IMG/VR virus record: IMGVR_UViG_3300025000_000120
Span: 1 to 57,549 of that record
Source: a virus
Taxonomy: Duplodnaviria; Caudoviricetes
Strand: one strand, 5' to 3'
Length of the DNA stretch: 57,549 bases
The notes beneath the pieces are model-generated. The model saw nothing but the letters and a program-made list of their open reading frames with translations. It made no database searches and was not told where the DNA came from. Numbering within the stretch: the first letter of the stretch is position 1; each line of letters starts with the position of its first letter. Shown piece by piece: positions 4,194-40,694 of this stretch. The translations under genes and the position numbers were made by a program.

Positions 4194-4237
4194 AAATAAA
4201 AGAGAAGGTTAAATACGATCATATTCTATCCTTCCTT
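4194..4237 (-). ncRNA. Short hairpin RNA or attenuator under a cassette promoter
   Basis: GAAGG-ATAGAATATGATCGTATTTAA-CCTTC followed by a U-rich tract, immediately after the repeat promoter. Confidence 0.35.
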
Positions 4238-4266
4238 CTATTATAGTGCGTGTTTTGCGCGCGAGG
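4236..4266 (-). promoter_or_regulatory. Isolated copy of the cassette promoter upstream of the nuclease/RNAP genes
   Basis: CCTCGCGCGCAAAACACGCACTATAATAGAA matches the array consensus. Confidence 0.7.
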
Positions 4267-4285
4267 TAAAAATAGTATGTGTCTG

Positions 4286-23478: not shown

Positions 23479-23516
23479 TTTACCATTCCGCCTTTCAAGA
23501 TTCGTTAAGGTGTCTT

Positions 23517-26646: not shown

Positions 26647-26710
26647 ACTAATAACCCCTTTCAAGAGTTCAATATCTATTTCATTATATAGCACGTAATC
26701 TACGCGACGT

Positions 26711-26875
26711 TCAGACAATTACGTTTTCCTTCGCTAGGAATAAGGGGACACCCATGAGTATTCCAAAGATGAGACCTGTACCATTCCCATCTATGGATAC
26801 TGATAGCACCCCTGCGCAGACAATAAGTACAGCATACAGCTTGTTAGTAGCCGTCTTAATTGTTAATTTTCGCAT
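26711..26875 (-). CDS. Small two-TM protein
   Basis: NKLYAVLI...DGNGT...GVPLFLAKEN. Confidence 0.55.
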   Translation of the reverse strand: MRKLTIKTATNKLYAVLIVCAGVLSVSIDGNGTGLIFGILMGVPLFLAKENVIV

Positions 26876-27071
26876 GTTTCGGTCCCCTAACATAGTAATT
26901 GTTAATTACCATAAATATAGGGTTTTTGATAACCGGTTTGCTTGGGGTGACGGCTTTGATTATGCTGATGCCCGAGAATATGGCTACACCTACATGAACG
27001 GTTTTAACAATAACCTCGCGATTGATGTTTTTGGTGGCGTTTAATGCCCGTTTAACAATAGTTTTCAACAT
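26856..27071 (-). CDS. Small membrane protein
   Basis: TTGAAAGGGG RBS; hydrophobic core. Confidence 0.55.
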   Translation of the reverse strand: MLKTIVKRALNATKNINREVIVKTVHVGVAIFSGISIIKAVTPSKPVIKNPIFMVINNYYVRGPKHAKINN

Positions 27072-27115
27072 AGTGATTAATCCCCTTTCAAAATATGGTT
27101 GGAAGTCATGAACTT

Positions 27116-27691
27116 TTATTCGTAGTTAGGACTATTGGGCAATGGACACCAATGTGTAACTTTTACTCCGAGCACTTCCTCGAAAGGAGTGATACAACAA
27201 TCAGCATACCATTTGCCATTTCTAAGTTCTGCTACATGTGGGATACCATAATATCCCTCGGGGTCCATCCTACATAATACAAGCACCCAATCGTACGTAG
27301 GAGATTCTGGTAATCTTTCAGTTACTGGAATCCAGGTTCGGTAACTATTAATAGACAGCAATCTACCAACATCTTTATCGGTATGACCATCCCATGGTTT
27401 CCCAAATCCAAGTTCCCGAACATTAAATATGTCCCAATCCTTATCTTTATAGTGATAAGTATATGATCCGTCTGGAGTATCAATCCCAACAATAAACCAT
27501 CCACCACCGAAGCATTCTCGACCATCGGCATGCCTACGAGACTTCCAAGACAGTTCTTCAAAAGCATTAAACAATGCGGCAGATAGAGCAAGTCTTTGGT
27601 CATATAGATCATTAAAAGAGTGATAACCGTCGCTTACTTCCCCGATGGAAATACCATTTTTTTCACATAGGTCTTTTAAAGTTTGTAACAT
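27116..27691 (-). CDS. WDGH-motif protein fused to a DUF551-like domain
   Basis: SDGYHSFNDLY...WDGHT; WIPVTERLP...VTHWCPLP. Confidence 0.7.
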   Translation of the reverse strand: MLQTLKDLCEKNGISIGEVSDGYHSFNDLYDQRLALSAALFNAFEELSWKSRRHADGRECFGGGWFIVGIDTPDGSYTYHYKDKDWDIFNVRELGFGKPWDGHTDKDVGRLLSINSYRTWIPVTERLPESPTYDWVLVLCRMDPEGYYGIPHVAELRNGKWYADCCITPFEEVLGVKVTHWCPLPNSPNYE

Positions 27692-27700
27692 GGCGATTAA

Positions 27701-27750
27701 CCCCTTTCAAGGCGCCCTGTGGGCGAATTTCGGTTTTACCGTAAATGATG
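27701..27750 (-). repeat. Twin-hairpin 5' leader element, copy 2
   Basis: CATCATTTACGGTAAAACCGAAATTCGCCCACAGGGCGCCTTGAAAGGGG. Confidence 0.7.
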
Positions 27751-27751
27751 A

Positions 27752-28300
27752 TTAATTACCGATCTTAAATGTCATTTCTGAGTCTTTCTTCTTAGTCATA
27801 CTGTCGGCTATCGAGCTATAGATCTTGGACACATTCGACAGGCTACCATTGAATTCCTCTAATAATCCATTAAGATTAGCATCAAACTTCTCGACAACAA
27901 GCTCTTTGGCTCTATTTTTGACCTCTTCCCTAAGTTTGTTCATGTCCATGTTGGCCACTTGCCTAGCTACCTCGTCGGTAACTGAAGATCTAACATGCGA
28001 ATATGCTGCATCCACGCTAGTTTTAACTTCCTTATGAATATCATTACGGACTGTGGACGTCACGTCATAGGAAATTGATTTGATAGCTTTACCCACTTCA
28101 CGATCCACGGCTCTACTAACTGCCTTCTCAATTATAGCATCGGAAACATTAACGGAAATATCCTTGGATAGTCCATCAGCAGACGATTCAATAACAGCTA
28201 ACAATTCATTAACCTTAATGTGTAAATACCTTGTATATGCTGATGCGACTACCCCTACAATACCTACGCCTATGATTCCTACTTTGATTACGTTACTCAT
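27752..28300 (-). CDS. Membrane-anchored helical protein
   Basis: Start at MSNVIK; N-terminal TM helix. Confidence 0.7.
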   Translation of the reverse strand: MSNVIKVGIIGVGIVGVVASAYTRYLHIKVNELLAVIESSADGLSKDISVNVSDAIIEKAVSRAVDREVGKAIKSISYDVTSTVRNDIHKEVKTSVDAAYSHVRSSVTDEVARQVANMDMNKLREEVKNRAKELVVEKFDANLNGLLEEFNGSLSNVSKIYSSIADSMTKKKDSEMTFKIGN

Positions 28301-28310
28301 GGTGATTAAT

Positions 28311-28360
28311 CCCCTTTTCAAGGCGCCCGGTGGGCGAATTTCGGTTTACCGGTAATGATG
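28311..28360 (-). repeat. Twin-hairpin 5' leader element, copy 3
   Basis: CATCATTACCGGTAAACCGAAATTCGCCCACCGGGCGCCTTGAAAAGGGG. Confidence 0.7.
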
Positions 28361-28361
28361 A

Positions 28362-28553
28362 CTACTTATTCAAAGATTCCATTTTACGACGGTATAACAT
28401 CTCAAGATCATTACTACTTTGATTGGCTATGAAATTCCGGTTCTTCAATTTCTCAATACGCCATTCCACATATTTAATTCCGACGGCTCCAACTCCGACA
28501 CATACAACGGCACCAATGGCTACGGTTCTAAAATTAAATGCCAACATAATCAT
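28362..28553 (-). CDS. Small membrane protein
   Basis: GAGGTG RBS; single TM helix. Confidence 0.55.
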   Translation of the reverse strand: MIMLAFNFRTVAIGAVVCVGVGAVGIKYVEWRIEKLKNRNFIANQSSNDLEMLYRRKMESLNK

Positions 28554-28614
28554 AGTTTCACCTCACTGAAAAATAGGATGCTATGTATTTTACTACATGC
28601 ATCCCGTTCAAGAT

Positions 28615-28809
28615 CTACTCTTCTGAGTCGGTTTCAATATCCACGATTTCATTTAAATCTACTTCCACATCCTCAACAACCACTTCATCAGTACCTAGTT
28701 TACCGGCCACTACAACCACTAACGCTATTGCGCCAGTTACTGCTAATGCTCCGTAAACTAATCCTTTTAAAACTCTCGTTTTGTTTGCTTTAATAATATT
28801 CATAAACAT
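28615..28809 (-). CDS. Cassette-borne small membrane protein (basic-TM-acidic)
   Basis: Directly downstream of the promoter repeat at 28839. Confidence 0.65.
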   Translation of the reverse strand: MFMNIIKANKTRVLKGLVYGALAVTGAIALVVVVAGKLGTDEVVVEDVEVDLNEIVDIETDSEE

Positions 28810-28962
28810 GATATATTCCCACTTTCAAATTTTATTCTTTCATTATAGGGCATGTAATTTTCGCGAGGCTAGGTTACTTTGCTTTTCGAGTTTAACAATC
28901 GTAGTAGTTCCAAAGGCTGATGCCTCATAACTTAATACATTCTTTTCATAGTGATTAATCCC

Positions 28963-29787
28963 TTAATAACTACGCTCTTGATATCTTGGGGTAACGGTAA
29001 AGTCCAACACGATACATGGCTCGTCATTCTCAGCAAATGCAGTTCCAAATTTAGCTTCGATTAACCCCTTATCATCGGAGTACCAACCCAGCAAATCGCC
29101 CATTTTAATCCCCTTCATGCCAAGACCAATATATACATCGTTTACAGGCATGAATCCTTGCATATCGTTCAATAACTCTCGACTTAGATCGTTAAGCACT
29201 CGTTCAATTTGTGCCCTGTCACTTCTAAAATATCTTCCTGACAATTCATCATAACAAAGAGTCTCGCCTCTACCTGTGAATACAACTTCACGTTCGCTAA
29301 CCGGATTGACTATAAGTTTATCCTTGTATATTTCTTCTACAACCTCACGCTCCTTACCCTTACCAATGGTTTCAATCACCTTACTCTTATACTGTCTAAA
29401 AGCTGCGTCAGATAATGAATATAACCCCGCCAATGCAGCGTTCCTACGCAGATGGATAGTGTTAGCTCCCACAATACCCCCGATTGTAACCACACCCATT
29501 ATTACGGTTGGAATATAACACTTCCATGTGAGTTTGACAATTTCCAGTTTGGTAATAGGGATTATGGAATAGTGGCCGCTACTCTCTTCACCTTTCTCAA
29601 TACCCTCATCTTCACGACGATATCGTTCCTCGTCAAGAATACGAATAGCCTTAGGTGTTGCCCTTACGGCCATTACTGCAGTACTAAGTAGCCCTGCTAC
29701 ACCGAGTATTGTAAGTAAGGTTGGTGAGTTTTTACCAGCTAATGCACCTATGGATCTTGTTGCTTTTTGTATGTTTGCTACGTTCAT
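28963..29787 (-). CDS. DUF6353-like membrane protein
   Basis: NSPTLLT..G.AG...A.RATPKA, RRNAALA..Y, SGRYF, LGW; paralog of 19168-20103. Confidence 0.75.
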   Translation of the reverse strand: MNVANIQKATRSIGALAGKNSPTLLTILGVAGLLSTAVMAVRATPKAIRILDEERYRREDEGIEKGEESSGHYSIIPITKLEIVKLTWKCYIPTVIMGVVTIGGIVGANTIHLRRNAALAGLYSLSDAAFRQYKSKVIETIGKGKEREVVEEIYKDKLIVNPVSEREVVFTGRGETLCYDELSGRYFRSDRAQIERVLNDLSRELLNDMQGFMPVNDVYIGLGMKGIKMGDLLGWYSDDKGLIEAKFGTAFAENDEPCIVLDFTVTPRYQERSY

Positions 29788-29792
29788 TGATA

Positions 29793-30098
29793 TTATTCCC
29801 CCTTCAAAAGTTCAATTTTGCTTAGATGATTATTAATTCGTTCCTGCAATAAAACTATTGCCGATTCCGCATAGGCTATTAAAATTTCCTTTGCTCGAGC
29901 ATCATCCCTTTCTTTAAGCCATACCATTGAATTGTATACTATACCTTCTTCGGCAGCACAACCAAGACTTTTAGTTTTGGATTTAAAGGACCCGCGTTTG
30001 TGATATTCATAAACCCGTCCTTCATGAACAGTGAATCTGCCGTTCAATAAAGAATACAAATAGACGTGTTCTTGAAGTAATGGATATGGTCTGGTCAT
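29793..30098 (-). CDS. Hypothetical protein
   Basis: TTGAAAGGAG RBS. Confidence 0.6.
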   Translation of the reverse strand: MTRPYPLLQEHVYLYSLLNGRFTVHEGRVYEYHKRGSFKSKTKSLGCAAEEGIVYNSMVWLKERDDARAKEILIAYAESAIVLLQERINNHLSKIELLKGE

Positions 30099-30130
30099 TA
30101 GTATTATCTCCTTTCAAAAAATATAATGAA

Positions 30131-30200
30131 AGAATATGTAGGATTCGAACCTACGACACTTAGCTTACACTAATCGCTCTAGCCACTGAGCTAATATTCT
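30131..30200 (-). tRNA. Atypical tRNA-like RNA (Tyr-like GTA in a 6-nt anticodon loop; no CCA)
   Basis: AGAATAT TA GCTC AGTGGCTA GAGC G ATTAG TGTAAG CTAAG TGTC GTAGG TTCGAAT CCTAC ATATTCT: perfect acceptor, D and T arms, but a non-canonical anticodon loop. Confidence 0.7.
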
Positions 30201-30232
30201 TTCATTATATAGTATGTAATTTTCGCGAGCAT

Positions 30233-30601
30233 TCATCGATACCCATTTTTTTCGTTACGTAATTCCAGTACAACTACAGATCGACATTGGCTTATACTCA
30301 AACCAAACTTCATACCAATATCTTTGTAGGTGTATCCCGAGTCCCGCATTTGTTTAATGGCGATGTTTCGAGTTTTACATTTAGTTGATCCTCGCTCCTT
30401 TGCGTAGTTATGGGCACTCAATGGTTGGGTTATCTTTTCGATTTTTTTGGTGTCACCATTGGCATACATAATTACTCCAAACTTTTTTTCATAATTAGAT
30501 CTGATTTGTAATAGAGTCTTCACAACAGATATTAAATCGTCGTTGGAATCAATCTCCGTTGGGAGTTCCTGTTTTTTTCGATCCAGATAACGCTTCTTCA
30601 T
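30233..30601 (-). CDS. Protein with C-terminal HTH (sigma region 4-like)
   Basis: RNIAIKQMRDSGYTYKDIGMKFGLSISQCRSVV. Confidence 0.6.
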   Translation of the reverse strand: MKKRYLDRKKQELPTEIDSNDDLISVVKTLLQIRSNYEKKFGVIMYANGDTKKIEKITQPLSAHNYAKERGSTKCKTRNIAIKQMRDSGYTYKDIGMKFGLSISQCRSVVVLELRNEKNGYR

Positions 30602-30749
30602 CTCTAAAACAATAGTCTCCTTCCCAACAGCCCATTAGGGCTTCGACGCACTTACTACAGTCTTTAGGTAATATACCTTTAGTTGGTGATACTTGGCACT
30701 TTATGAGTTTAGACTTTTTTTTCATTAGTATCCTCCTTAAAATATGAGC

Positions 30750-30805
30750 AAAAAAGAAATGGCTAGGACTTACTCCTAGGTAGACTATTCAAACAGTCCA
30801 CTTCT
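30750..30805 (-). ncRNA. Cassette-borne small structured RNA
   Basis: AAGAAGTGGACTGTTTGAATAGTCTACCTAGGAGTAAGTCCTAGCCATTTCTTTTTT: two hairpins, paired ends, U tract, no ORF. Confidence 0.6.
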
Positions 30806-30835
30806 TTCATTATATAGTGCGTAATTCACGCGAGC

Positions 30836-30912
30836 AAAAAAGAAGTCCAAGCGAGAATTAACTCATTAGGTACTCTTGGATGTCCGTATGTCTAGCATAT
30901 AGAACTCTTCTT
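30836..30912 (-). ncRNA. Cassette-borne small structured RNA
   Basis: Ends pair (AGAAG/CTTCT); internal stems TATG/CATA, TCCAAG/CTTGGA and GAG/CTC; U tract; no RBS or ORF. Confidence 0.6.
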
Positions 30913-30945
30913 TTCATTATATAGTGTGTAATTTTCGCGAGAAAA

Positions 30946-31004
30946 ATAATGGTTATTCAATATACCCGACTTGCGCCGATGGGAATCAAACCCACTAACA
31001 TTAT
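30946..31004 (-). ncRNA. Circularly permuted tRNA-elbow mimic, copy 1
   Basis: ATAATG TTA GTGGG TTTGATT CCCAT CGGC GCAA GTCG GGT ATATTGAATA ACC ATTAT then U tract. Confidence 0.75.
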
Positions 31005-31077
31005 CTTTCATTATACAGCATGTAATTTCGCGAGCAAAAAGAAATGCTAAGTTTCCTTAACAACTTCTCTTTATAAG

Positions 31078-31263
31078 TTAATCTTTATCCATACTTAGTT
31101 TCACATGTTCCGCCTTGAATCGTATCTTAATCATAGTTTCTTGGGTCTCTCCATTGTCGCTTGTTGTTGTGCTTGGAATATCAAATTCCATTTCACAGTT
31201 ACGTGCTTCGTATAAGACACCTTTTTTTATAATTGCTGATATAATTACATCGGTGATTTTCAT
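31078..31263 (-). CDS. Cassette-borne small protein
   Basis: Own promoter repeat, RBS and terminator. Confidence 0.7.
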   Translation of the reverse strand: MKITDVIISAIIKKGVLYEARNCEMEFDIPSTTTSDNGETQETMIKIRFKAEHVKLSMDKD

Positions 31264-31335
31264 ATGCTTTTCCGCCTTTCAAATATAACTTCTATTATAG
31301 CGCATGTATCCTACGCGAGCAAAAAGAATAGAAGC

Positions 31336-31569
31336 TTAATAAGCTTCTATTCTCCCTTTAATTCCAACAAAGCTTAATACTTTTAAATCATATTCTAATT
31401 TCTTAATAACCGACTTCTTACTGACGAATGTAATTTCAACTGTTCCATCAATCATGAGACATATGTCGATCGTTGTTCCCGATTTCTTATATGTTTCAAT
31501 GAGTTTTGTAACTTTCGAACTATCCCCGTTCAATACTCTTGTGATTACTTTAAATTCCTTAGTAAACAT
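31336..31569 (-). CDS. Cassette-borne small protein
   Basis: Own promoter; stop inside the terminator hairpin GAATAGAAGCTT-ATT-AAGCTTCTATTC. Confidence 0.7.
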   Translation of the reverse strand: MFTKEFKVITRVLNGDSSKVTKLIETYKKSGTTIDICLMIDGTVEITFVSKKSVIKKLEYDLKVLSFVGIKGRIEAY

Positions 31570-31626
31570 GCTATATTCCTCCTAAATTTTATTTCTTTCA
31601 CTATATAGCATGTTACGTACGCGAGT

Positions 31627-32097
31627 CTATCGATTAGAATACGGACATCCACCAATGCCTGGATTGTCATCACACACGGGAACGTCATACTTGGCAAATA
31701 ACTTTCGTACACTACAATTACTCGGTAAATCGGAACAATTATTGCAAGCTACCATAGCTTTTTCACATAGATCTAATAAATCTGAAGTCTGGATTGGCGT
31801 GACGCTGTCAAGTTCTAACATTTGCTTATACTCACGTATTGCGTCGTTGCGGTACTTCAAAACAACATCCATTTTCTTAGACTGACTCATTAAATTATCG
31901 GATTCGAGATCATCCAACTGTTCACACTTTATACATAGTGCTCTGAATATAAACGATTTAGCCATTCGAAGGGCTTTGACAGAATCTTTATTGCCTATGT
32001 TCTTAGCCCATTCATCAGCCGTACCAGTTGCATAATCTATGAACGCCGATAAGGTTAAGACCTGGTTCTTCTCTAGTCGATTGAAATATGTTTTCAT
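31627..32097 (-). CDS. Hypothetical protein with C-terminal Cys cluster
   Basis: GAGGAGG RBS; C..C...C...CPY. Confidence 0.7.
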   Translation of the reverse strand: MKTYFNRLEKNQVLTLSAFIDYATGTADEWAKNIGNKDSVKALRMAKSFIFRALCIKCEQLDDLESDNLMSQSKKMDVVLKYRNDAIREYKQMLELDSVTPIQTSDLLDLCEKAMVACNNCSDLPSNCSVRKLFAKYDVPVCDDNPGIGGCPYSNR

Positions 32098-32115
32098 CGT
32101 ACGCCTCCTCCTACT

Positions 32116-32160
32116 CTATACACGGTATAGTAACGGTCCAATGTGAAGCCACGGGTACAT
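32116..32160 (-). CDS. Possible 14-aa peptide MYPWLHIGPLLYRV
   Basis: GGAGGTGG RBS just after a truncated repeat. Confidence 0.3.
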   Translation of the reverse strand: MYPWLHIGPLLYRV

Positions 32161-32201
32161 AGTATATAATACCACCTCCACGCGAGCAAAAGAGAAAAGG
32201 A

Positions 32202-32351
32202 TCAGCCCTCAAGGAGCTTTTCCAATTCATCTACTTGTTCCGTAAATCGCTTTTTAAATTCTTCAAATGTCAGCGAACAGGCTTCCGATTCGATAAAGGT
32301 TCTCAATTTTATAAGTACCTCATCTATTTCTTCAACCGTAATCTTTTTCAT
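32202..32351 (-). CDS. Cassette-borne 49-aa acidic helical protein (not in ORF track)
   Basis: MKKITVEEIDEVLIKLRTFIESEACSLTFEEFKKRFTEQVDELEKLLEG; AAGGAGG RBS; promoter at 32375. Confidence 0.7.
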   Translation of the reverse strand: MKKITVEEIDEVLIKLRTFIESEACSLTFEEFKKRFTEQVDELEKLLEG

Positions 32352-32429
32352 AATAAAACCTCCTTCAATTTACTTTCATTATACGGTATGTACCTAACGC
32401 GAGCAGAAAGAGAGAGACTAAGTCTCTCA

Positions 32430-32651
32430 TCAGTTTCCTAATAAAGTCTCTAACTCTCTCATAGCTCTTTCAAATCTTCTTGTGGCTTCCCCTCCTGTAT
32501 ATGTATCCGCGTCAGTACCAATGCGTTCGTGCCAGGTTATTGCTTCGGACGATACCATATAAATGTCATTTACAATGTCATTTTCATAATTTTCGTCTAT
32601 CATCTTTAACCGATACTTCATATTGATCTTCGTAACTTCTATCATATCCAT
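32430..32651 (-). CDS. Cassette-borne small acidic protein
   Basis: Promoter at 32676, GAGGAGG RBS, terminator. Confidence 0.7.
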   Translation of the reverse strand: MDMIEVTKINMKYRLKMIDENYENDIVNDIYMVSSEAITWHERIGTDADTYTGGEATRRFERAMRELETLLGN

Positions 32652-32712
32652 AATAAAGGCCTCCTCAAATTTATTTTCATTATGGAGTATGTAACTAACG
32701 CGAGTAATATGT

Positions 32713-33306
32713 CTACTTAATTTGCCAAAACACTATATCTCTTTTTTTTGTACCCACTTGCATTGGATATTTTGTGATTTCCAGCAATTTGTCAAATAAA
32801 TCGTAATTATATAGAGTTAACAAATCTCGTCTAATACATAATTTATTTATGCCATATCGCTTATTAAACACGTTCCAAAGATGAATGCCTTCCGACAAAT
32901 TCCCAGAACATGATAACAATGACACGGGATGTCTATACATATGCCTCAACGGTATTTTTAAATCCGAAGCTTCAAATATAAAGTCTCCATTCTTTTTAAT
33001 TTTAGCAACCATGTTATACTTTTGAAACTTATCGTATTGAATAGCGTTACTTATAATAAGTTTATATTGTTTACCCTGTGCCTCATCCCAGATCAAATCT
33101 AAATATTCATTATCTTGCTCTTTTGCCTTGTCAAATACATAAAAAGGCAGGTCTTCGGATATGTATTTATGATCTGTTCTTATGGTGCACAATCCAAACT
33201 TATCTATCAGATCCACGTACTCATCATATGTTTCGGGTATGTAAAATTGATGAATATTCAAATTTAATTCCATAATGCGATTAAGACTTTGAATTTTATC
33301 GAACAT
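32713..33306 (-). CDS. Hypothetical protein
   Basis: 197-aa AT-rich ORF with G-run RBS. Confidence 0.65.
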   Translation of the reverse strand: MFDKIQSLNRIMELNLNIHQFYIPETYDEYVDLIDKFGLCTIRTDHKYISEDLPFYVFDKAKEQDNEYLDLIWDEAQGKQYKLIISNAIQYDKFQKYNMVAKIKKNGDFIFEASDLKIPLRHMYRHPVSLLSCSGNLSEGIHLWNVFNKRYGINKLCIRRDLLTLYNYDLFDKLLEITKYPMQVGTKKRDIVFWQIK

Positions 33307-33345
33307 GTTATACCCCCCATATATCCATTGTGAGAAAAAGAAAAC

Positions 33346-33531
33346 CTAAGCTTTCTCTGGTATAAGAGTTAAATGTTTATTGGACTTAAAGTTTATTTTG
33401 AATTCTTTAATTCCGTTTTGATGAGCAATATTGGTTACTAAATCCATAAGATAGTCTAATGATATAGTAACTCCTTCTCTACTCTCTAATTCAGCAACTA
33501 GTTCTTCGGTTGATATTTTTGATAAATCCAT
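33346..33531 (-). CDS. Cassette-borne small protein
   Basis: MDLSKISTEELVAELESREGV; ends EKA-TAG inside the terminator. Confidence 0.7.
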   Translation of the reverse strand: MDLSKISTEELVAELESREGVTISLDYLMDLVTNIAHQNGIKEFKINFKSNKHLTLIPEKA

Positions 33532-33605
33532 AATTACTCAACTCCTTTCATTATATCGCATGTATCCATCGCGACCAAAAAGAAAGCCTAAACTTTCTCT
33601 CCTTT

Positions 33606-33836
33606 CTATAAAAGTGGTTTGTTTAGTATTGTTCTGATACTGGATTCGTTTATAAACATATTTTTGCTAATTTCGACATTAGACAGTCCTATACTCTTTA
33701 GTCTGGTTGCCTTGGCGTAAAGATCATTCATTAATTCCTCTTCGCCCTGACACGCTATACTTCTTAGTTTAGTTACTGTAATACCCATTCTTTTAGCAAC
33801 GTCTGCTTCACTTACTTCCAATGTACGTTCAATCAT
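33606..33836 (-). CDS. Stand-alone tandem-HTH protein paralogous to the RNAP N-terminus
   Basis: ATRLKSIGLSNVEISKNMFINESSIRTILN versus RNAP ANRLKAKGYSNVEIGKRMGGRNESSVRSLLD. Confidence 0.8.
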   Translation of the reverse strand: MIERTLEVSEADVAKRMGITVTKLRSIACQGEEELMNDLYAKATRLKSIGLSNVEISKNMFINESSIRTILNKPLL

Positions 33837-33951
33837 ATTAAACACACGCCTTTCACTTTCATTATAAAGCATGTTATGTACGCGAGGTCTACCGATAACA
33901 GCCTACTACGCAGAACCGGCAAAAAGAAAGCCTAAGCTTTCTCCGCTAGAC

Positions 33952-34281
33952 CTATAATTCTACCTCATGGTAATTTCCGTTATCGAGATCACTCATTGTT
34001 GCGAGGAACGCTTCGGATACCGTAATATCACTATTAACCGGTAAATCTAACGTCCATCCAATACCTGAGCCTTGCTCGTTTCCTTGAAACCAATGAATAG
34101 AATAATCAGGTTCCTTTGCGGGAATCTCTACGACTTCTTCTTCTTTCTTAGTGTTTAGGCCAATTGTTATTAGAGCTAAAACCCCCATTCCAACGATAAT
34201 CCCAGCTGCTATGACCTTTTCTTTGTGGTTGTTCCACAAGACCTTAGCCTGTTCTTTCACTGATAATTTGTTTTTAATCAT
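33952..34281 (-). CDS. Cassette-borne membrane protein
   Basis: Promoter at 34299; basic-TM-acidic layout. Confidence 0.7.
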   Translation of the reverse strand: MIKNKLSVKEQAKVLWNNHKEKVIAAGIIVGMGVLALITIGLNTKKEEEVVEIPAKEPDYSIHWFQGNEQGSGIGWTLDLPVNSDITVSEAFLATMSDLDNGNYHEVEL

Positions 34282-34480
34282 AATACAAATACCTCACTTT
34301 CATTATGACGTATGTAACAGTCGCGATCCTATCGATCCTCCGTTCGCATGATTAATGTGAATATAGCGGTGGCTCTAGCCTTAAGTTCCTCATTCGTAAG
34401 GTCTGATAGTAATTCGATACATAAACGATCATGTTCGGCATATAGCTCGGCATAGGTCATGGTATAAGAATCTTTCGTCA

Positions 34481-34780
34481 TCACACGTCCTCCACCAACA
34501 CTAATGTTTTTCTGTTAACGGCATAAGACATATACTTTAAAACACGTTGTTTCTTCCGCTGTATTAAATTATCATTATCAAGAATAGGAATAAGACATTC
34601 TTCTTTAAGCATTTCAAATACCCCAAGAAGATCTCCAAACTCAATAGCGATTTTTTCAGCAGTATTAATATCACTCTTCCATTTATCATCAAGGCCAAAT
34701 CGTAAAGCTTTTGCGGCTTCTTTTTGAATTTCTGAACATTCTTCAATTAAACAGGTTAATAAATGTTCGGTTTTATTCAT
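34481..34780 (-). CDS. MazG-like NTP pyrophosphohydrolase
   Basis: EECSEIQKEAAKALRFG...EFGDLLG. Confidence 0.65.
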   Translation of the reverse strand: MNKTEHLLTCLIEECSEIQKEAAKALRFGLDDKWKSDINTAEKIAIEFGDLLGVFEMLKEECLIPILDNDNLIQRKKQRVLKYMSYAVNRKTLVLVEDV

Positions 34781-34826
34781 AATATCCTCCTTATTAATTT
34801 TTAGACTTAGACATTAACCTAAAGTA

Positions 34827-35009
34827 CTATTCGTTAACCCCATATACAAATATCCAATTCTCTGCACGAGTCTCATAATATACACGATCGTCCACACGTA
34901 CGTCAAAGTACTTAATTCCGTTTTTTTCATAGACGGCCACTACAATTCCACTAAACTCGTTGTTGATATTTTTTACCTCATCTTGATAGCCTGGTAATGT
35001 TACACTCAT
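34827..35009 (-). CDS. Small SH3-like hypothetical protein
   Basis: GAGGAG RBS; beta-rich. Confidence 0.55.
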   Translation of the reverse strand: MSVTLPGYQDEVKNINNEFSGIVVAVYEKNGIKYFDVRVDDRVYYETRAENWIFVYGVNE

Positions 35010-35022
35010 AGTTATACTCCTC

Positions 35023-35556
35023 CTAAATGCCTTTTATTTTGCATGCTATCATATCTGCCATGTGGGAATACAGAACATTCGGATAACGATCAATGGCTCT
35101 ACCATAATATGCCCATTTATTGGTATCTTTTTCATAAGAACCCATATGCCATCTTATACACGCTACTTCTTCGTCCGTAAGATCCATATATTTTTGAAGG
35201 TATATAACCGACTTCTCCCCATGACCATCAATAAGGAGTTGATCATTGTACTTATATGGATGTTCCCCATCGGGCGTTTTGATATAGTTGTCAATTTTAC
35301 ATAGATCATGGAATAACCCAACGATCAACGGTGATTCTGGACGTTGCCATTTCAAGCCCATACCTATTGTTAGTTTCTGTAACGTGTCATAAACCTCGTA
35401 GCTGTGGTCAAATAACCCGCCCTCGTAACTTCCATGACGCTTCGTACTTGCTGGTGCGGTTAGGAATTCGGCTATTGGGAATTTACCATTCGTGAGAACT
35501 CCTAGTTTACCATAAGTTAAAGCTCTAAATTTGTCATATCTATCATCGAAATTCAC
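35023..35556 (-). CDS. HD-domain phosphohydrolase
   Basis: APAS..HG..EGGL.DHS, FHDLCK, GHGEKS, RWHMG, HMADM. Confidence 0.85.
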   Translation of the reverse strand: MNFDDRYDKFRALTYGKLGVLTNGKFPIAEFLTAPASTKRHGSYEGGLFDHSYEVYDTLQKLTIGMGLKWQRPESPLIVGLFHDLCKIDNYIKTPDGEHPYKYNDQLLIDGHGEKSVIYLQKYMDLTDEEVACIRWHMGSYEKDTNKWAYYGRAIDRYPNVLYSHMADMIACKIKGI

Positions 35557-35558
35557 AA

Positions 35559-35795
35559 TTACACCTCCTTCCTTAGAATATGATTCCGGAATTCATGATC
35601 ATCACTTATTTCACTAGCGCGTAATATTTGTAGCGTCATCCAAGTGGCGATATAACCCTTTTGGTTTAGATATTTCTTACCTTCGGTGACATCCATTTTC
35701 CACATAACGCCAACGACTTCTCTAGGGGCATTCGTTATTAAGACATTATGTGCATCATATATGAAGGCTCTACAACTATCTAAGTCTCCCTGCAT
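35559..35795 (-). CDS. Hypothetical protein (paralog of 37212-37406)
   Basis: AFIYD.HNVLITNAPREVV shared. Confidence 0.7.
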   Translation of the reverse strand: MQGDLDSCRAFIYDAHNVLITNAPREVVGVMWKMDVTEGKKYLNQKGYIATWMTLQILRASEISDDHEFRNHILRKEV

Positions 35796-35798
35796 TAA

Positions 35799-36203
35799 TT
35801 ACACCTCTTTCCTTAAAATATGGTTCCACAACACGCCTTTGATATAAACATTTTTAATACCAGCGTTGACAATCATTCGACGGCACATAAAGCAGGGTTC
35901 GTCCGTAACATAAATATCCGCACCATCAATCGATATACCATGTCTCGCGGCTTGAATGATTGCATTTGCTTCAGCGTGCACACTTTTGCATAATTCGTAA
36001 CGTTCGCCGGGTTTAACCCTTAGTCGTTCACGCTCACACACCACACAGTGCGCTTCACCCATAGGGGTTCCATTATATCCACTACTTAATATTAGTCTAT
36101 CTTTCACGATTATAGCACCCACGTTACGACGTAAACACGTTGATCTAGTCGCCACTGTCTTAGCAAGTAATGCAAAGTATTCACTCCATGATGGTCTAGT
36201 CAA
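35799..36203 (-). CDS. dCMP deaminase family protein
   Basis: RSTCLRRNVGA, SGYNG, HAEANA, PCFMC. Confidence 0.9.
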   Translation of the reverse strand: MTRPSWSEYFALLAKTVATRSTCLRRNVGAIIVKDRLILSSGYNGTPMGEAHCVVCERERLRVKPGERYELCKSVHAEANAIIQAARHGISIDGADIYVTDEPCFMCRRMIVNAGIKNVYIKGVLWNHILRKEV

Positions 36204-37191
36204 GTTTACGCACCTTCTCACTAGTAATTGGATTTATCAGATATACGTCTCCCATATTTTCTCTTATCCATTGAATTTTATCATCCGATGGTATTGGTCC
36301 ATATTTATCCTCGACGAGCTTAATAAGATTTATCAGATATACGTCTCCCATATTTTCTCTTATCCATTGAATTTTATCATCCGATGGTATTGGTCCATAT
36401 TTATCCTCGATGAGCTTAATAAGATTTATAGACATCCCTCCATATTTACGATTTGTTTCAATTTCACCCAACATGCTTTTTAAATTAGAAACATGTTTGT
36501 CGACACCATCTAACATTTTTAATGTTTTCTGATTAGACTCTTCTCCATTAAGGTTTTCTTCTCTCATCAATATGTCATTATTTTTCTTAATGATCCCCTT
36601 TCTTAAATCAAAATTAAATAGAGATCGTTCGGGCTTAGATCTTGATGGAATATCCTGTAATTCAGGATGCTTTTCTTCTATCCACATAGCACCAATAATA
36701 TTCCACGCAGCAGCAACAAGATGATCCTCGTCCGTCTGCCCATCAACACATTTTAATAGATGTCGAATTCCACTATCTATAAAACTACTAATCGGAAGAC
36801 CTTTTTCCCAATTTCTCGGGGCATATTTTACTGCGCCAGCCTCATAATGCTTCGAAAGACGTAATAATGCACATGCTGGATATGATGAATATTTTGGAAT
36901 ATCTATTGATTTTTTTTCTTCCATATACATGGCATCTATTAAATCACATGCGGCCGCGCAAAGATGATCATGATTTGTTTCGCCATCTAGATAAAACATC
37001 AATCGGATCAACGAATCATCCAACATAGAGCAAAACGATACATTATCGTTAAGTCTTCTGGCATTAGCCCGATATTGAGATATTCTCAATAGAGCCGCCG
37101 CCGGTAATAGATCACATCGACCCTTACCTTCACTCATATCACGTACGGCACCACTTTCAAATTCTCGTCTATCGCCACTGTCTTTTAACAT
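36196..37191 (-). CDS. dATP/dGTP diphosphohydrolase-like (DUF5664) protein with a duplicated C-terminal tail
   Basis: FESGAVRD...KGRCDLLP, GAVKY..RNWEKG, RHL, EDHL.AA.WN. Confidence 0.75.
   Translation of the reverse strand: MLKDSGDRREFESGAVRDMSEGKGRCDLLPAAALLRISQYRANARRLNDNVSFCSMLDDSLIRLMFYLDGETNHDHLCAAACDLIDAMYMEEKKSIDIPKYSSYPACALLRLSKHYEAGAVKYAPRNWEKGLPISSFIDSGIRHLLKCVDGQTDEDHLVAAAWNIIGAMWIEEKHPELQDIPSRSKPERSLFNFDLRKGIIKKNNDILMREENLNGEESNQKTLKMLDGVDKHVSNLKSMLGEIETNRKYGGMSINLIKLIEDKYGPIPSDDKIQWIRENMGDVYLINLIKLVEDKYGPIPSDDKIQWIRENMGDVYLINPITSEKVRKLD
36231..36429. repeat. 96-bp in-frame tandem duplication
   Basis: 36231-36326 and 36327-36422 differ at one base. Confidence 0.95.
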
Positions 37192-37211
37192 AGTATAAAC
37201 ATCTCTCTTTC

Positions 37212-37406
37212 TCAAACTACTTCACTGGAACGTAATCGTTGTAAGGTCATCCACGTAGCCACATAACCTTTTTGTGTTAGATTTTTCAAACCTTCGGTAA
37301 CGTCTAAATGCCACATAACCGCAACAACTTCCCTAGGCGCATTGGTTATCAAGACGTTATGCTCGTCATATATGAATGCCTTACACTTATCTAAATCTTC
37401 TTGCAT
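37212..37406 (-). CDS. Hypothetical protein (paralog of 35559-35795)
   Basis: High similarity over about 60 aa; AAAGGAG RBS. Confidence 0.7.
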   Translation of the reverse strand: MQEDLDKCKAFIYDEHNVLITNAPREVVAVMWHLDVTEGLKNLTQKGYVATWMTLQRLRSSEVV

Positions 37407-37679
37407 GGCAATATCTCCTTTCTTAAACTTAGAATATAAATTACTAATGTGGCATAGAACATAGCATCAGATACATTGTTCCCGTAAAACTGAAGTTAGT
37501 GTTGGTCGAATTTGTAACTTCTCTCCAAGTTCTCTTTTCGAAGAAATTCACATCTCACATTTTAGACCCTATCTTTTTATTAACGAGTTAACCCGATATA
37601 ACAACGATCATAGCCGCTACGCCCATCAAAACACCTGTAAAATATACTGGTTCCTTCTTTCAAAATATGGCTTAGTGAG

Positions 37680-37775
37680 AAAAAAGAAATAGCTGTACGT
37701 AGGTCCGGTTTGACTCTTAATCTTCATCTCCTACTGTTATCGCCAGGGACTTAATGCCCTATACTCGCTTATTCT
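37680..37775 (-). ncRNA. Cassette-borne structured RNA of about 95 nt
   Basis: Ends pair (AGAATAAGC/GCTATTTCT); stems AGGG/CCCT and GTAGG/CCTAC; U tract. Confidence 0.55.
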
Positions 37776-37818
37776 TTCATTATATAGTATGTAATTTTCG
37801 CGAGCAAAAAGAAAGAGT

Positions 37819-37980
37819 CTAAGCTCTCTCAGATTCAATTGCTTCTGTAACAACATTATCGCTCAGCGTAAGATAGACATAGTCCTTTGGATTAGGACCT
37901 TCTCTGAATATGGCGAACGTTTCATTGTTATCGGCATTTAAGTCTAAGAGTTCTTTAACTCTTTCTAAATTTATTTCATT
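37819..37980 (-). pseudogene. Start-less cassette ORF (53 open codons ending ERA-TAG in the terminator)
   Basis: Frame NEINLERVKELL...IESERA has no in-frame ATG/GTG/TTG. Confidence 0.4.
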
Positions 37981-38015
37981 ATAGAATATGTTACGTACGC
38001 GAGCAAAAAGAAAGC

Positions 38016-38207
38016 CTAAGCTTCCTCCTTATCAATAAGTTTATTAATAATATGGGCTTTTATATCATTCAGTTCTGTAGCACTTGGTATCGAATTTCCG
38101 TCCTCATCCAAAACTTCCATTTTAAAGTTTTCAATTTTAAATTGTTTTGCGTTCTCGATATTTACATCAATTAGTACCTCTGCTACTGCTACGATTTTTA
38201 CTTTCAT
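38016..38207 (-). CDS. Cassette-borne small acidic protein
   Basis: AAGGAGG RBS; ends EEA-TAG in the terminator. Confidence 0.75.
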   Translation of the reverse strand: MKVKIVAVAEVLIDVNIENAKQFKIENFKMEVLDEDGNSIPSATELNDIKAHIINKLIDKEEA

Positions 38208-38297
38208 GATAATCCTCCTTATTTTATAAATTTCTTTCATTATATGGAATGTAATTCACGCGAGGTCTCATGACAACCATCTACTACACAGAATGGG

Positions 38298-38372
38298 CTA
38301 GAAGGGAAGATGTGTACATGGATATTCTCCCGTACGTATCAGTCTACTATTTTCGACTAATATCATCTTCTA
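38298..38372 (-). ncRNA. Cassette-borne structured RNA
   Basis: GAAGATG/CATCTTC closing stem enclosing AGTC/GACT and GTAC..GGA/TCC..GTAC arms. Confidence 0.55.
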
Positions 38373-38409
38373 TTATAGAGTAGGTTACGTACGCGAGCAG
38401 AAAGAAAGC

Positions 38410-38616
38410 CTAAGCTTCCTCTACGTCTGATATAATTTTAGCGGCGATAATTGTTCCAATTATTAATCCTGCTGTAGCGCTTATAAACGCGCACGCAAAC
38501 CCCTTCCACCAACCTTCATCAAAGCACTTCTTTTTTAATTGTTGTACTTCAAATTCGTTTGTTGGAATAGTCTCACATTCCTCTGTTTGTAGGTGATGCA
38601 TTCTTATCATTTTCAT
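38410..38616 (-). CDS. Cassette-borne small protein with C-terminal TM helix
   Basis: AAAGGAG RBS; ends EEA-TAG. Confidence 0.75.
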   Translation of the reverse strand: MKMIRMHHLQTEECETIPTNEFEVQQLKKKCFDEGWWKGFACAFISATAGLIIGTIIAAKIISDVEEA

Positions 38617-38694
38617 AATATCAATCTCCTTTAAATTTATTTCATTATATAGCAGGTTATCCACGCGAGCAGAAAGAAAGCCTAAGCTTCCTTC

Positions 38695-38958
38695 TCACAT
38701 TAAGGTCTTAAATCCTTCGTAAATTATTTCTGTCATTTTTTGTTGAACTTTAAAATTCTGATAATCCTGTTCTCTACCTTGGCAGCATAATACGTACACC
38801 TTTGATACTAGTGATCCATCTGAATCTGAAACTACTTCCGACTCTCTCAAGTCGAGTACTTTAAATTCATTGGCTCTAAGTATCCTGGTTACACTTATTA
38901 CTGCCTTTTCTAACAACTGAGTTATCACTCTAAATTCAATTATTTTAGTCATAATCAT
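38695..38958 (-). CDS. Cassette-borne small protein
   Basis: AGGAGG RBS; own promoter and terminator. Confidence 0.75.
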   Translation of the reverse strand: MIMTKIIEFRVITQLLEKAVISVTRILRANEFKVLDLRESEVVSDSDGSLVSKVYVLCCQGREQDYQNFKVQQKMTEIIYEGFKTLM

Positions 38959-39020
38959 TCCTCCTATATTTTGCTTAATGTCATTATGGTGTATGCAAAT
39001 ATCGCGAGCAGAAAGAAAGC

Positions 39021-39254
39021 CTAAGCTTCCTCGATGTTTTCTGCTACTTCGTAGAATTTCCCATCGATTTCAATTATGCTTCCATCTTTTAAACCTTGTT
39101 TAATTTTCTTGTTGAATTTCACTTCGTTAATAACATTGCCAACTCCAACAGCAACATGCCCTATAGCACTAAATGCAATTCCAACTACTGCTGGCACTAC
39201 TACTAATACTACAAAACCCATTACTGCTAGGTCTACGATATCTTTATCTTTCAT
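39021..39254 (-). CDS. Cassette-borne small membrane protein
   Basis: Start at MKDKD; ends EEA-TAG. Confidence 0.75.
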   Translation of the reverse strand: MKDKDIVDLAVMGFVVLVVVPAVVGIAFSAIGHVAVGVGNVINEVKFNKKIKQGLKDGSIIEIDGKFYEVAENIEEA

Positions 39255-39327
39255 GATAATTCCTTCTTTCAAATTAAATTTATTTCATTATAGAATATGT
39301 TACGTACGCGAGCAAAAAGAAAGAAAC

Positions 39328-39456
39328 CTATTTGGCTTCTCCCCATGTCAATACCTTGGATGTTTCGTTAGCTATTACTATACTCGCCATTGCTACTACC
39401 ATTACTAAAGAAACTCCAGCGAGTCCTCCTAAAATAGTTTTTGCAATATTCTTCAT
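39328..39456 (-). CDS. Cassette-borne 42-aa TM peptide (not in ORF track)
   Basis: MKNIAKTILGGLAGVSLVMVVAMASIVIANETSKVLTWGEAK; stop in the terminator loop. Confidence 0.7.
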   Translation of the reverse strand: MKNIAKTILGGLAGVSLVMVVAMASIVIANETSKVLTWGEAK

Positions 39457-39577
39457 AATAAATTCCCTCTTTCAAGTTTATTTTCATTATATAGCACGTA
39501 ATTCACGCGAGCAAAAAAAGAAACCTAAGTTCCTTCATTATGCTATTTAGTGATTTGTAATATACTCGTTCATTGTA

Positions 39578-39712
39578 TTATTTCATATTTACTGCGTTGT
39601 TACGTCTGTGATTCACTACTACCGTTGCTATTATCGCAAAGGCTACAATCAATCCTGCTGTAATTCCTACAGTAGTCATGGTTAATGCTACTTGTTGAAC
39701 TTTAATATACAT
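39578..39712 (-). CDS. Cassette-borne 44-aa TM peptide (not in ORF track)
   Basis: MYIKVQQVALTMTTVGITAGLIVAFAIIATVVVNHRRNNAVNMK; AAGGAG RBS. Confidence 0.7.
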   Translation of the reverse strand: MYIKVQQVALTMTTVGITAGLIVAFAIIATVVVNHRRNNAVNMK

Positions 39713-39782
39713 ATTAATCGCTCCTTTTATTTACATAATTCTTCTATTATATAATGCATAATGGACGCGAGCAAAAAAAAAA

Positions 39783-39841
39783 ATAATGGCAATCCAATTA
39801 ACCCAGTTTTCACTGATGGGAATCGAACCCACTAACATTAT
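39783..39841 (-). ncRNA. Circularly permuted tRNA-elbow mimic, copy 2
   Basis: ATAATG TTA GTGGG TTCGATT CCCAT CAGT GAAA ACTG GGT TAATTGGATT GCC ATTAT then U11. Confidence 0.78.
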
Positions 39842-39911
39842 CTTTCATTATATAATGTGTAATTCACGCGAGGTATGATAACCACTATCTGTCACGCAGA
39901 ACGAGCAAAAA

Positions 39912-39987
39912 AAAGAAGCGACGGGTTCGAACCGCATTTCTCTGGTAGATATACCAGCGCTTTAACTTTTAAGCTAAATTTTCTTCT
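39912..39987 (-). tRNA. Degenerate tRNA-like RNA (6-nt anticodon loop, broken acceptor stem)
   Basis: TA GCTT AAAAGTTA AAGC G CTGGT ATATCT ACCAG AGAAAT GCGG TTCGAAC CCGT; ends GAAG/CTTC then U tract. Confidence 0.6.
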
Positions 39988-40028
39988 TTCATTATGTAGT
40001 ATGTAATACACGCGAGCAGAAAGAAAGC

Positions 40029-40190
40029 CTAAGCTTCCCTCCCGACAATGTCATGAATAATCGGTCTTTTGTTTTTAACATTCATTGTATCTATTATGTC
40101 GAATATCTTTTTGTTAGCATCTTTTCGTCCTTGCCAGTAACATGTACCAGCAATCGTCAAACCTACAATCAATAACCATAATGTTTTCAT
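40029..40190 (-). CDS. Cassette-borne 53-aa membrane peptide (not in ORF track)
   Basis: MKTLWLLIVGLTIAGTCYWQG...IVGREA; stop in the terminator; AAAGGAG RBS. Confidence 0.72.
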   Translation of the reverse strand: MKTLWLLIVGLTIAGTCYWQGRKDANKKIFDIIDTMNVKNKRPIIHDIVGREA

Positions 40191-40277
40191 AATGTTAATC
40201 TCCTTTCAAAATTATCATAACACTTTCATTATAGTATATGTTTTGGATGCGAATCGAGCAAAAAGAGAAGGCATGTT

Positions 40278-40571
40278 TTACACACGCCCCTTAATGATAA
40301 ACCCTAACGCTTTCGTAGTTATTACTCCAGCTTGTTCAAATCCCAATATCAGTGCTATGCCCAATAGATTACCTGCTATGATCAGAATCGTGTCTTTCTT
40401 TATTTTCTGTTCGCGTTTTATCGCGTCCATTTTATAAAGCTTTTCAAGATTATCGGTCATATTTTTGTATTCCGCTGAGTCTGGCTGATGTTGTTTCATA
40501 ATTTCCAAGACTGCTGCAATTTCTGCTTCAAGCGCCGTTTGTTTATTCTTTTTGGTGAATTTCTTAAACAT
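40278..40571 (-). CDS. Cassette-borne membrane protein
   Basis: Start at MFKKF; C-terminal GNLLGIALILGFE..GVITTKA. Confidence 0.75.
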   Translation of the reverse strand: MFKKFTKKNKQTALEAEIAAVLEIMKQHQPDSAEYKNMTDNLEKLYKMDAIKREQKIKKDTILIIAGNLLGIALILGFEQAGVITTKALGFIIKGRV

Positions 40572-40694
40572 TTGCGTTCTCTCCTTCAAGATTTTATTCT
40601 TTCATTATAGCGTGAGTTATTTCCGCGAAGGAATCATCAACAATGGATTTTCGTAAACCTTGGAATTTTTACCGTCAATTATAATGTCGGTACA

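Follow-up and report, generated by a model that had tools for sequence, protein, structure and literature searches.

In the insertion sequence IS1, the N-terminal helix-turn-helix (HTH) domain of the InsAB' transposase is also made as a separate small protein, InsA, which is able to occupy the DNA sites of the enzyme; the short form is produced from the transposase gene itself, under frameshift control, and does not differ from the domain in sequence. T7 lysozyme, which binds T7 polymerase, is unrelated to its enzyme. Here we describe a gene that invites comparison with both, found in a fragment of a Caudoviricetes phage (IMG/VR record IMGVR_UViG_3300025000_000120, positions 1 to 57,549; this whole stretch of 57,549 nucleotides (nt) is called the window below). 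The gene, at 33606..33836 on the minus strand, encodes a free-standing double-HTH protein of 76 residues (P0001), recognised from its open reading frame (ORF), public gene calls, homology and a structural model. The protein is a specific, collinear homologue of the N-terminal double HTH of an RNA polymerase encoded in the same window, a relationship that goes beyond generic HTH likeness. The logic is that of IS1 InsA, by analogy only, but the small phage protein is encoded by a diverged gene of its own, and its counterpart is an RNA polymerase rather than a transposase. As with T7 lysozyme, a small accessory protein would restrain its own polymerase; here it is a paralogue of a polymerase module and probably acts on DNA.

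The polymerase belongs to a widespread and unstudied family (phrog_4291), which comprises 250 isolated-phage records and at least 7996 protein clusters at 90% identity. In the literature searched, a single preprint (bioRxiv 10.1101/842583) discusses it. There the protein of Streptomyces cluster BI phages is proposed to be a polymerase of the YonO/crAss type, with an HTH domain at each end; the polymerase is described as common to an actinophage supercluster, Lactococcus phage 1706 and Faecalibacterium phages, and is the only HTH protein known to be common to these phages. The words promoter, terminator, repeat and transcription do not occur in that preprint. More distantly, the enzymes of Thermus phage P23-45 (gp64, gp96) and YonO of SPbeta share the fold of the large protein in the window. 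The P23-45 enzymes use phage-specific promoter motifs (PMC10770324); the terms "helix-turn-helix" and "DNA-binding domain" do not occur in the accessible part of that paper, which reports no free paralogue of a polymerase domain.

In the window, the polymerase is a single-chain, two-barrel enzyme of 954 residues (261..3125, minus strand) that matches phrog_4291 with an E value of 0. Its predicted structure (mean predicted local distance difference test score, pLDDT, 83.9; predicted template modelling score 0.71) is most similar in Foldseek searches to QDE-1 (E = 4e-9, probability 1.0), followed by P74-26 gp62 and P32 gp64 (E of about 8e-6) and RDR2 (E = 1e-5), with further matches to P23-45 gp96 and, more weakly, to cellular polymerases. 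A DFDGD metal loop of the DxDGD type, at residues 546-550, is invariant in 82 sequences. The double-psi beta-barrel fold and the loop bear out the initial annotation, which had taken this protein to be an RNA polymerase. Besides the N-terminal pair of HTHs, the enzyme contains central HTHs and a C-terminal HTH resembling sigma region 4 (Pfam E = 5e-8). Its first 28 residues (3042-3125, minus strand) hold a peptide, HYG..R.SGRY(P/E)WGSG, that is nearly invariant in the 82 polymerases and predicted to be disordered (pLDDT below 50). This HYG..GRYPWGSG stretch is a conserved linear motif that the free protein does not carry.

The initial annotation had delimited the small gene exactly, as a 76-codon coding sequence plus stop. 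Its ATG corresponds to M13 of a mechanically defined 88-residue ORF (33606-33872, minus strand) in the ORF list. Public gene callers return the identical 76-residue product, five relatives start at the equivalent residue, and the 12 extra codons of the longer frame run across the TATAAT of the promoter.

The relationship between the small protein and the polymerase is supported at several levels. By BLASTP, residues 20-84 of the 88-residue ORF pair with residues 44-109 of the polymerase (27 of 68 positions identical, or 40%; 43 of 68 positive; 5 gap positions; 40.8 bits, E = 2e-9), while the other four local matches have E values of at least 0.2. This places the double-HTH module at 2799..2996 (minus strand), where BLASTP, a six-frame search, an alignment and the structural model agree, and within the approximate range (residues 43-110, nucleotides 2795-3000) proposed from inspection of the sequence. 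Searched in six frames, the whole record yields the small gene itself and the polymerase module, and no further copy. Among PHROG families, phrog_4291, to which the polymerase belongs, matches the small protein best (E = 2.4e-9, over positions 48-115 of the 909 in the profile); the next family has an E value of 5.4e-4, and generic HTH families trail by at least five orders of magnitude. Scored with a profile of 19 polymerase modules, from which the small proteins were excluded, the small protein reaches 69.6 bits, compared with 12.3 bits for the best of 1000 shuffled sequences. None of the 12 Pfam HTH families searched reaches its gathering threshold, the best scores being 18.8 bits for Sigma70_r4_2 (threshold 25.7), 16.6 for HTH_23 (24.6) and 15.3 for GerE (23.5). 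The protein is thus far closer to the polymerase module (69.6 bits) than to any of these HTH families (at most 18.8 bits). NCBIfam gives only matches far below threshold, for example to the tandem-HTH protein Cbp1 (19.8 versus 140 bits). Among the 59 other window ORFs scanned with Pfam there are no recognisable HTH proteins at E 1e-3.

The two modules also share a layout. In a MAFFT alignment of 26 sequences, a single one-residue gap separates the small protein from the polymerase module of the window. An AlphaFold2 model of the small protein, computed from a 26-row alignment (pLDDT 80.4), has helices at residues 10-17, 21-48, 53-60 and 64-71, which after a shift of 36 residues match polymerase helices 46-52, 57-84, 89-95 and 101-108 in a comparison of secondary structure rather than a superposition. 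Both consist of HTH1, a long connecting helix and HTH2, in the same order and with the same spacing, as the term tandem HTH in the initial annotation implied. Residues 30-76 of the model superpose on the DNA-bound tri-helical HTH of DeoR (VIA Z score 6.5; root-mean-square deviation 1.4 over 47 residues); VIA Z scores of 4.4-6.5 are obtained for DeoR, Tn3 resolvase, ParB/KorB, sigma region 4 and GerE, with nine chains at 5 or above, scores that are middling since values below 8 are common for helical models. In tri-helical fold, residues 30-76 may thus resemble the small HTH proteins of the sigma-region-4, HTH_23 and LuxR-GerE types, whose Pfam and NCBIfam cut-offs the protein does not reach; unlike a single sigma-4 unit, it consists of two HTHs joined by one long helix. 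A Foldseek search with the small model returns nothing at E 0.001 or below (best E = 0.38). The nearest language-model clusters contain "sigma factor-like HTH" proteins of 72-114 residues, with scores of up to 0.90, which we regard as leads only. In sequence-profile searches of the PDB, the top match, to DotG/IcmE, was rejected as a repeat artefact in which no stretch is individually significant; the other matches are generic HTHs, such as the PAI subdomain of Sleeping Beauty (E = 0.003).

Residue conservation shows which parts of the module the free form retains. Seventeen positions are common to at least five of six small proteins and at least 15 of 19 polymerase modules: S9, E10, A14, K15, G18, L24, R25, A43, L46, G50, S52, I56, M60, S65, S66, R68 and L71. 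They cover both HTH cores, with L24-R25 in HTH1 and S65-S66-R68 in HTH2, as well as the whole recognition helix of HTH2, N-E-S-S-(I/V)-R, which is identical in the free form and in every polymerase of the family. Four polymerase residues that are invariant in the 82 sequences (G86, S88, S102 and R105) are each kept in five or six of the six small proteins. The double-HTH module is present in the polymerase homologues scanned. Polymerases of the phrog_4291 family include Lactococcus phage 1706 ORF75 and the proteins of Streptomyces cluster BI, Arthrobacter clusters AM, AU and AW and Gordonia cluster DJ, the cluster proteins being labelled "HTH DNA-binding / RNA-dependent RNA polymerase". The modules of these phrog_4291 polymerases are 40-48% identical to the small protein and have the same length, helix pattern and HTH2 recognition helix. 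Unlike them, the small protein is free-standing, begins 8 residues before the second helix of HTH1 and ends 5 residues past HTH2; it has neither the N-terminal peptide, nor the helix before HTH1, nor a catalytic body, and it belongs to a separate clade. Because it is not part of a polymerase, it falls outside the defining context of the polymerase family.

Two protein searches identified five free-standing relatives, P0002 to P0006 (78%, 60%, 54%, 50% and 47% identity), which together with P0001 form six clusters of 72-83 residues with a common start and end, whose HTH cores contain 18 invariant columns. A tree of 134 module sequences, built on 77 columns and with its deep branches unresolved, places P0001 to P0006 in one group (Shimodaira-Hasegawa-like approximate likelihood ratio test support 95) and the polymerase module of the window far from them, alongside P0019 and P0020. 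The free gene is therefore old relative to the phage and of single origin; by sequence comparison it is an anciently diverged paralogue and not a recent copy of the polymerase gene of the window. The initial annotation had called the protein a stand-alone copy of the polymerase module. The homology it implied is clear (E = 2e-9, 69.6 bits), but the old separate clade, the changes in HTH1 described below and the missing first helix do not fit a simple copy. Among the other short matches inspected, which did not include P0012, P0015 and P0016, most are probably fragments of polymerases because they carry the N-terminal HYG..GRYPWGSG peptide; P0018 (381 residues) starts at HTH1 instead. A further protein, P0017 (101 residues, on a single contig of 1,472 bases), keeps the extra first helix and lies on a long branch outside the six-protein clade. 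P0017 could represent a second, independent release of the module, or an artefact due to the shortness of its contig.

Searches of genomes located one further free-standing gene in its context. In isolated phages there is no free-standing copy, all 71 of the 71 matching records matching once, inside a large gene. In IMG/VR, the 33 loci inspected of the 80 returned contain no free copy, every match lying inside a long frame; a frame of more than 600 residues with DFDGD is present in 77 of 82 loci. Genome contigs yielded only two partial HTH2-like matches, in Bacteroidota metagenome-assembled genomes, unrelated to the family. Metagenome contigs returned three loci, two of which are polymerases. 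The third, L083 (12 kb, 30% G+C), encodes a 72-residue copy with 49% identity in the same kind of cassette region as that of the window. Only six L083 ORFs match the window at all; the HTH gene is one of them, and most neighbouring genes are not kept. The 80-residue "HTH DNA binding protein" of phage 1706, orf64, was considered as a free copy and rejected, as a search with the small protein at E 1e-3 gave nothing in phage 1706 and orf64 appears by eye to contain only one HTH.

These data bear on the simplest explanation of the gene, that it is a decaying, functionless remnant of a partial duplication of the 5' end of the polymerase gene. The gene is short and rare and has a weak ribosome-binding site, as such a remnant might. 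We nevertheless give this explanation hardly any credence: the frame is intact and has its own promoter and its own hairpin, the six clusters form one clade with shared ends and 18 invariant HTH-core columns, and the gene is kept in L083 while most of its neighbours are not. The identical P0001 protein is moreover encoded on 27 public contigs. The segment 30001-40000 of the window is present in five DNA sequencing runs from two studies (groundwater and sediment); no RNA run is listed as containing it.

The small gene is encoded by a cassette, as the initial annotation stated, with promoter, gene and hairpin following one another at 33577-33890 (minus strand). The promoter repeat, CCTCGCG TACA TAACAT GCTT TATAAT GAAAG, lies at 33853..33890 with its TATAAT at 33861-33866, and scores 41.1 bits against a weight matrix built from 20 sites. 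A weak putative ribosome-binding site, AAAGG (33849..33853), is found 12 nt 5' of the ATG, whereas neighbouring cassettes have AGGAGG-like sites nearer to the start. Directly past the stop codon there is a terminator-like hairpin with a U-run (33577..33602; -12.1 kcal/mol, z = -2.68), and the promoter of the next cassette is directly 3' of it. With its own promoter 5' and the hairpin and U-run 3' of the stop, the gene constitutes a monocistronic cassette.

This cassette is one of many in a region at 26650..40640 (minus strand), which contains 26 promoter repeats with the consensus tttgCTCGCGtaaaTtACataCtaTATAATGAAAgaaa, each driving a small gene or a small RNA; a hairpin of the type AGCTTAGGCTTTC lies directly 5' of most of them. 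The pattern CGCG-N10-16-TATAATG has 18 exact matches in the window, including the promoter of the small gene, compared with 0.21 expected, and all are on the minus strand. The weight matrix detects 27 sites on the coding strand, 26 of them at 26.7-40.6 kb; the remaining one, at 4245, precedes the polymerase operon. On the opposite strand it detects a single weak site. The site before the endonuclease-exonuclease-polymerase operon (4232..4269, minus strand), CCTCGCG CGCA AAACA CGCAC TATAAT AGAAGG, scores 31.2 bits. A scan for sigma-70 -35/-10 promoters shows no enrichment (54 found, 57 expected) and calls none of the 26 repeats.

Related promoter words occur in other phages that encode the polymerase. 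In L083, CGCGTA-AAAACA-TATAAT-GAAAGA is found many times. Phage 1706 has GTTTTACATAcaCTATAGTAGAAAGAAGG, with 11 exact TTACA-N5-TATAGT occurrences on its coding strand at 24-43 kb and 13 matches versus 3.65 expected. Scap1 (61% G+C) has CTCGCAAGTTTTACAGCCTCTATAGTGAGACC, a second similar site and a related word before its nuclease-polymerase operon, and two viral contigs have TTCGCAAAATTTACAACGCATATAATGGAGA and TTCGCGAAAATTACAAGGGCTATAATGAA. Of 20 further loci searched with a strict pattern, 6 (L006, L007, L010, L038, L040 and L085; 31-53% G+C) have the word some 905 nt upstream of the polymerase start. The CTCGCG repeats, which the initial annotation had regarded as promoters, are accordingly a promoter of this phage family, shared with Lactococcus and Streptomyces phages. 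A word of about 35 nt, comprising TCGCG, TTACA, TATA(A/G)T and a G/A-rich start, is thus common to polymerase phages of different host phyla; we found no description of it, nor of any promoters or regulators of this polymerase family, in the literature searched, a scope that excluded subscription journals such as the one carrying the original description of phage 1706.

Which enzyme reads this word? Phages of hosts from two bacterial phyla keep it, spacer and first transcribed bases included, and we therefore expect a phage-encoded reader, for which the polymerase is the obvious candidate. Because the architecture is the same at 30 to 61% G+C, the protein that reads the boxes must be one conserved in all these phages. 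The promoter word is phage-specific and, judging from its sequence and distribution, is probably the polymerase's own promoter. As to which enzyme fires these promoters, we lean modestly towards the phage polymerase over that of the host. The TCGCG and TTACA boxes lie about one helical turn apart, a distance that would suit two HTHs joined by a rigid helix. Among eight phages, box 1 and the HTH1 helix show too little variation for a test of covariation.

On these grounds, we propose that the 76-residue protein is a trans-acting DNA binder that competes with the polymerase, or modulates it, at phage promoters; we hold this proposal tentatively, at a little short of an even chance. Made from its own cassette promoter, the protein would bind DNA through its intact HTH2, with the conserved upstream boxes TCGCG/TTACA, 5' of TATAAT-GAAAG, as the presumed target if the N-terminal module is indeed the reader of the boxes. 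It could then compete with the polymerase or modulate its activity at some or all of the approximately 27 promoters, its own included, provided that the phage polymerase uses them. The outcome might be a brake or timer on transcription of the cassettes and of the polymerase operon, assuming that the effect is negative. Because the polymerase operon has the same type of promoter, a brake on a self-reinforcing loop is attractive, if speculative. The survival of the gene in a relative as distant as L083, at 49% identity, supports the proposal, and the phage-specific promoter motifs of other phage two-barrel polymerases (PMC10770324) offer a precedent by analogy. A more specific version, in which the N-terminal double HTH is the promoter-reading head of the polymerase and the diverged copy acts in trans on the same boxes as a competitor or specificity switch, similar to a sigma/anti-sigma layer, is possible but on the whole doubtful. 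Complex prediction for the small protein and polymerase residues 111-954 (score 0.00, mark 0.32) speaks neither for nor against an interaction.

A number of observations weigh against competition at the same sites. The -10 element is a perfect host-type TATAAT, making the host polymerase a candidate too, and within the phage polymerase the C-terminal HTH (E = 5e-8) fits sigma region 4 better than the N-terminal pair does, so that the other HTHs of the enzyme could be the promoter readers. The recognition helix of HTH1 has changed from T-T-T-Q-L-R-x-x-K-S to T-V-T-(K/E)-L-R-x-x-x-(C/A) in the free form, with the conserved polar T, Q and S replaced by V, K/E and C/A. Also lost are a near-invariant K ahead of HTH2 and, within HTH2, the G of the turn. 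Judging from the models, polymerase helix 32-41, which precedes or completes HTH1, has no counterpart in the free protein. HTH1 of the free protein may thus not bind DNA, or may bind something else. Furthermore, the free proteins have acquired a (D/E)-L-Y motif of their own midway along the long helix, in which L-Y is invariant, along with family-specific V21, I70 and P74; the L-Y is a hint of a new surface, for dimerisation or for contact with a partner. The free proteins are also the less basic of the two groups (net charge -3 to +4, versus 0 to +8 for the polymerase modules), and in the protein of the window the stretch after the HTH1 recognition helix is acidic (QGEEELMND). Finally, the free form is very rare, with 6 clusters compared with at least 7996 of the polymerase, which makes it an accessory rather than a core component. 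Taken together, the changes in HTH1, the reduced basic character and the acquired L-Y argue against a simple mimic, and a plain same-site competitor is only one possibility.

The changes in the HTH1 recognition helix at three conserved positions, together with the family-specific V21, D/E-L-Y, I70 and P74, would also suit a DNA-binding regulator with its own diverged specificity, a repressor or activator that acts through a separate operator on a small sub-regulon or on itself. A candidate operator is a 23-nt element, TTCTGCGTAGTAGGCTGTTATCG, between the preceding hairpin and the promoter of the small gene (33893..33915, minus strand). Exactly three promoters carry this element upstream, the other copies being at 38271-38293 and 39879-39901 (three found, 0.10 expected). 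In addition, the promoter of the small gene belongs to a sub-type, CGCGTAC(G/A)TAAC, shared with the sites at 39292, 38377, 37983 and 31605. However, the HTH2 recognition helix is unchanged from that of the polymerase, the 23-nt element looks like a decayed second (tandem) copy of a promoter, and a reading by eye, with no formal search, did not reveal it upstream of the homologous gene in L083. Nor did we find a dyad or repeat operator for the small protein. We therefore consider such a regulator rather unlikely.

An invariant L-Y on the long helix, the loss of basic residues and the absence of the first helix are likewise compatible with a new protein interface. The protein could dock on the polymerase core, or on a host or other partner, and either switch the promoter choice of the enzyme, in the manner of a sigma-type swap, or block the enzyme; or it could serve as a decoy for a host sensor of the module. 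This we regard as improbable: the cis module of the polymerase should out-compete a trans copy with 40% identity, the residues of the HTHs that would read DNA are the best conserved ones, and PADLOC assigns no families to the small protein and two of its neighbours.

The rarity of the gene raises one further alternative, that of a weapon between phages, which would bind the same promoter boxes as in our proposal but at the polymerase promoters of a co-infecting relative, while those of its own phage escape. An accessory gene in a fast-evolving cassette region, with a specificity diverged from that of its own polymerase module, could serve this purpose, and relatives should meet often in a polymerase family this common. 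Against it, the 72 window ORFs scanned include no lysogeny functions, and the promoter of the small gene has the same boxes as all the others; this function seems decidedly improbable.

Taken as a whole, the interpretation of the small protein as a trans-acting competitor or modulator of its polymerase is plausible, not proven, and the protein has diverged further than the word copy implies. We found no description of regulation by a free double-HTH paralogue for this polymerase family in the literature searched. If the protein does act as a promoter-reading head in trans, this would be the first case in which a detached paralogue of the promoter-recognition domain of an RNA polymerase controls that enzyme, and the protein would be a natural, domain-only reagent for learning how this common polymerase family finds its promoters. 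The window, together with phage 1706, Scap1 and the metagenomic relatives, provides a concrete promoter word across host phyla and a separately encoded candidate for the promoter-reading module. Two questions thereby become approachable: how a two-barrel polymerase without sigma recognises promoters, and whether a phage can regulate its own polymerase with a free version of the DNA-binding head. Should the protein instead prove to be a small HTH regulator of the usual kind, acting on an operator of its own, the result would be modest, and the promoter word and cassette layout would still help annotation.

The window is a phage fragment in which all genes lie on the minus strand, in the order tape measure gene (cut at the end), tail genes, endolysin, 14 kb of small cassettes, replication genes, the endonuclease-exonuclease-polymerase operon and a last small gene. 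The gene order in Scap1 and 1706 is the same. The record starts inside the tape measure gene and is without head or packaging genes, yet it is rated 96% complete. The identical small protein is also encoded on a contig of 91,737 bases and its relative P0004 on one of 104,461 bases; the true genome is probably about 90-105 kb.

Some cassettes contain small RNAs instead of ORFs (30128-30201, 39912-39983, approximately 39790-39850, approximately 30950-31010 and 30740-30810, all minus strand). These small RNAs include a tRNA-Leu(taa), a sub-threshold tRNA-like RNA (25.5 versus 29 bits) and a hairpin RNA, and two near-identical small-RNA pieces carry the tRNA T-arm-like GGTTCGATTCC. A group of genes at 34481-37215 (minus strand) encodes a MazG-like pyrophosphohydrolase, an HD phosphohydrolase, a dCMP deaminase and a protein with the N-domain of a dATP/dGTP diphosphohydrolase; this cluster of nucleotide-pool enzymes may hint at modified DNA. 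Two paralogous sets (minus strand) comprise two DUF6353/phrog_2152 proteins and three phrog_4079 proteins (19168-20103, 28963-29787; 22536-24858). A 297-residue protein (20343-21236, minus strand) contains a domain of Tad5, an inhibitor of type I Thoeris (E = 2e-32).

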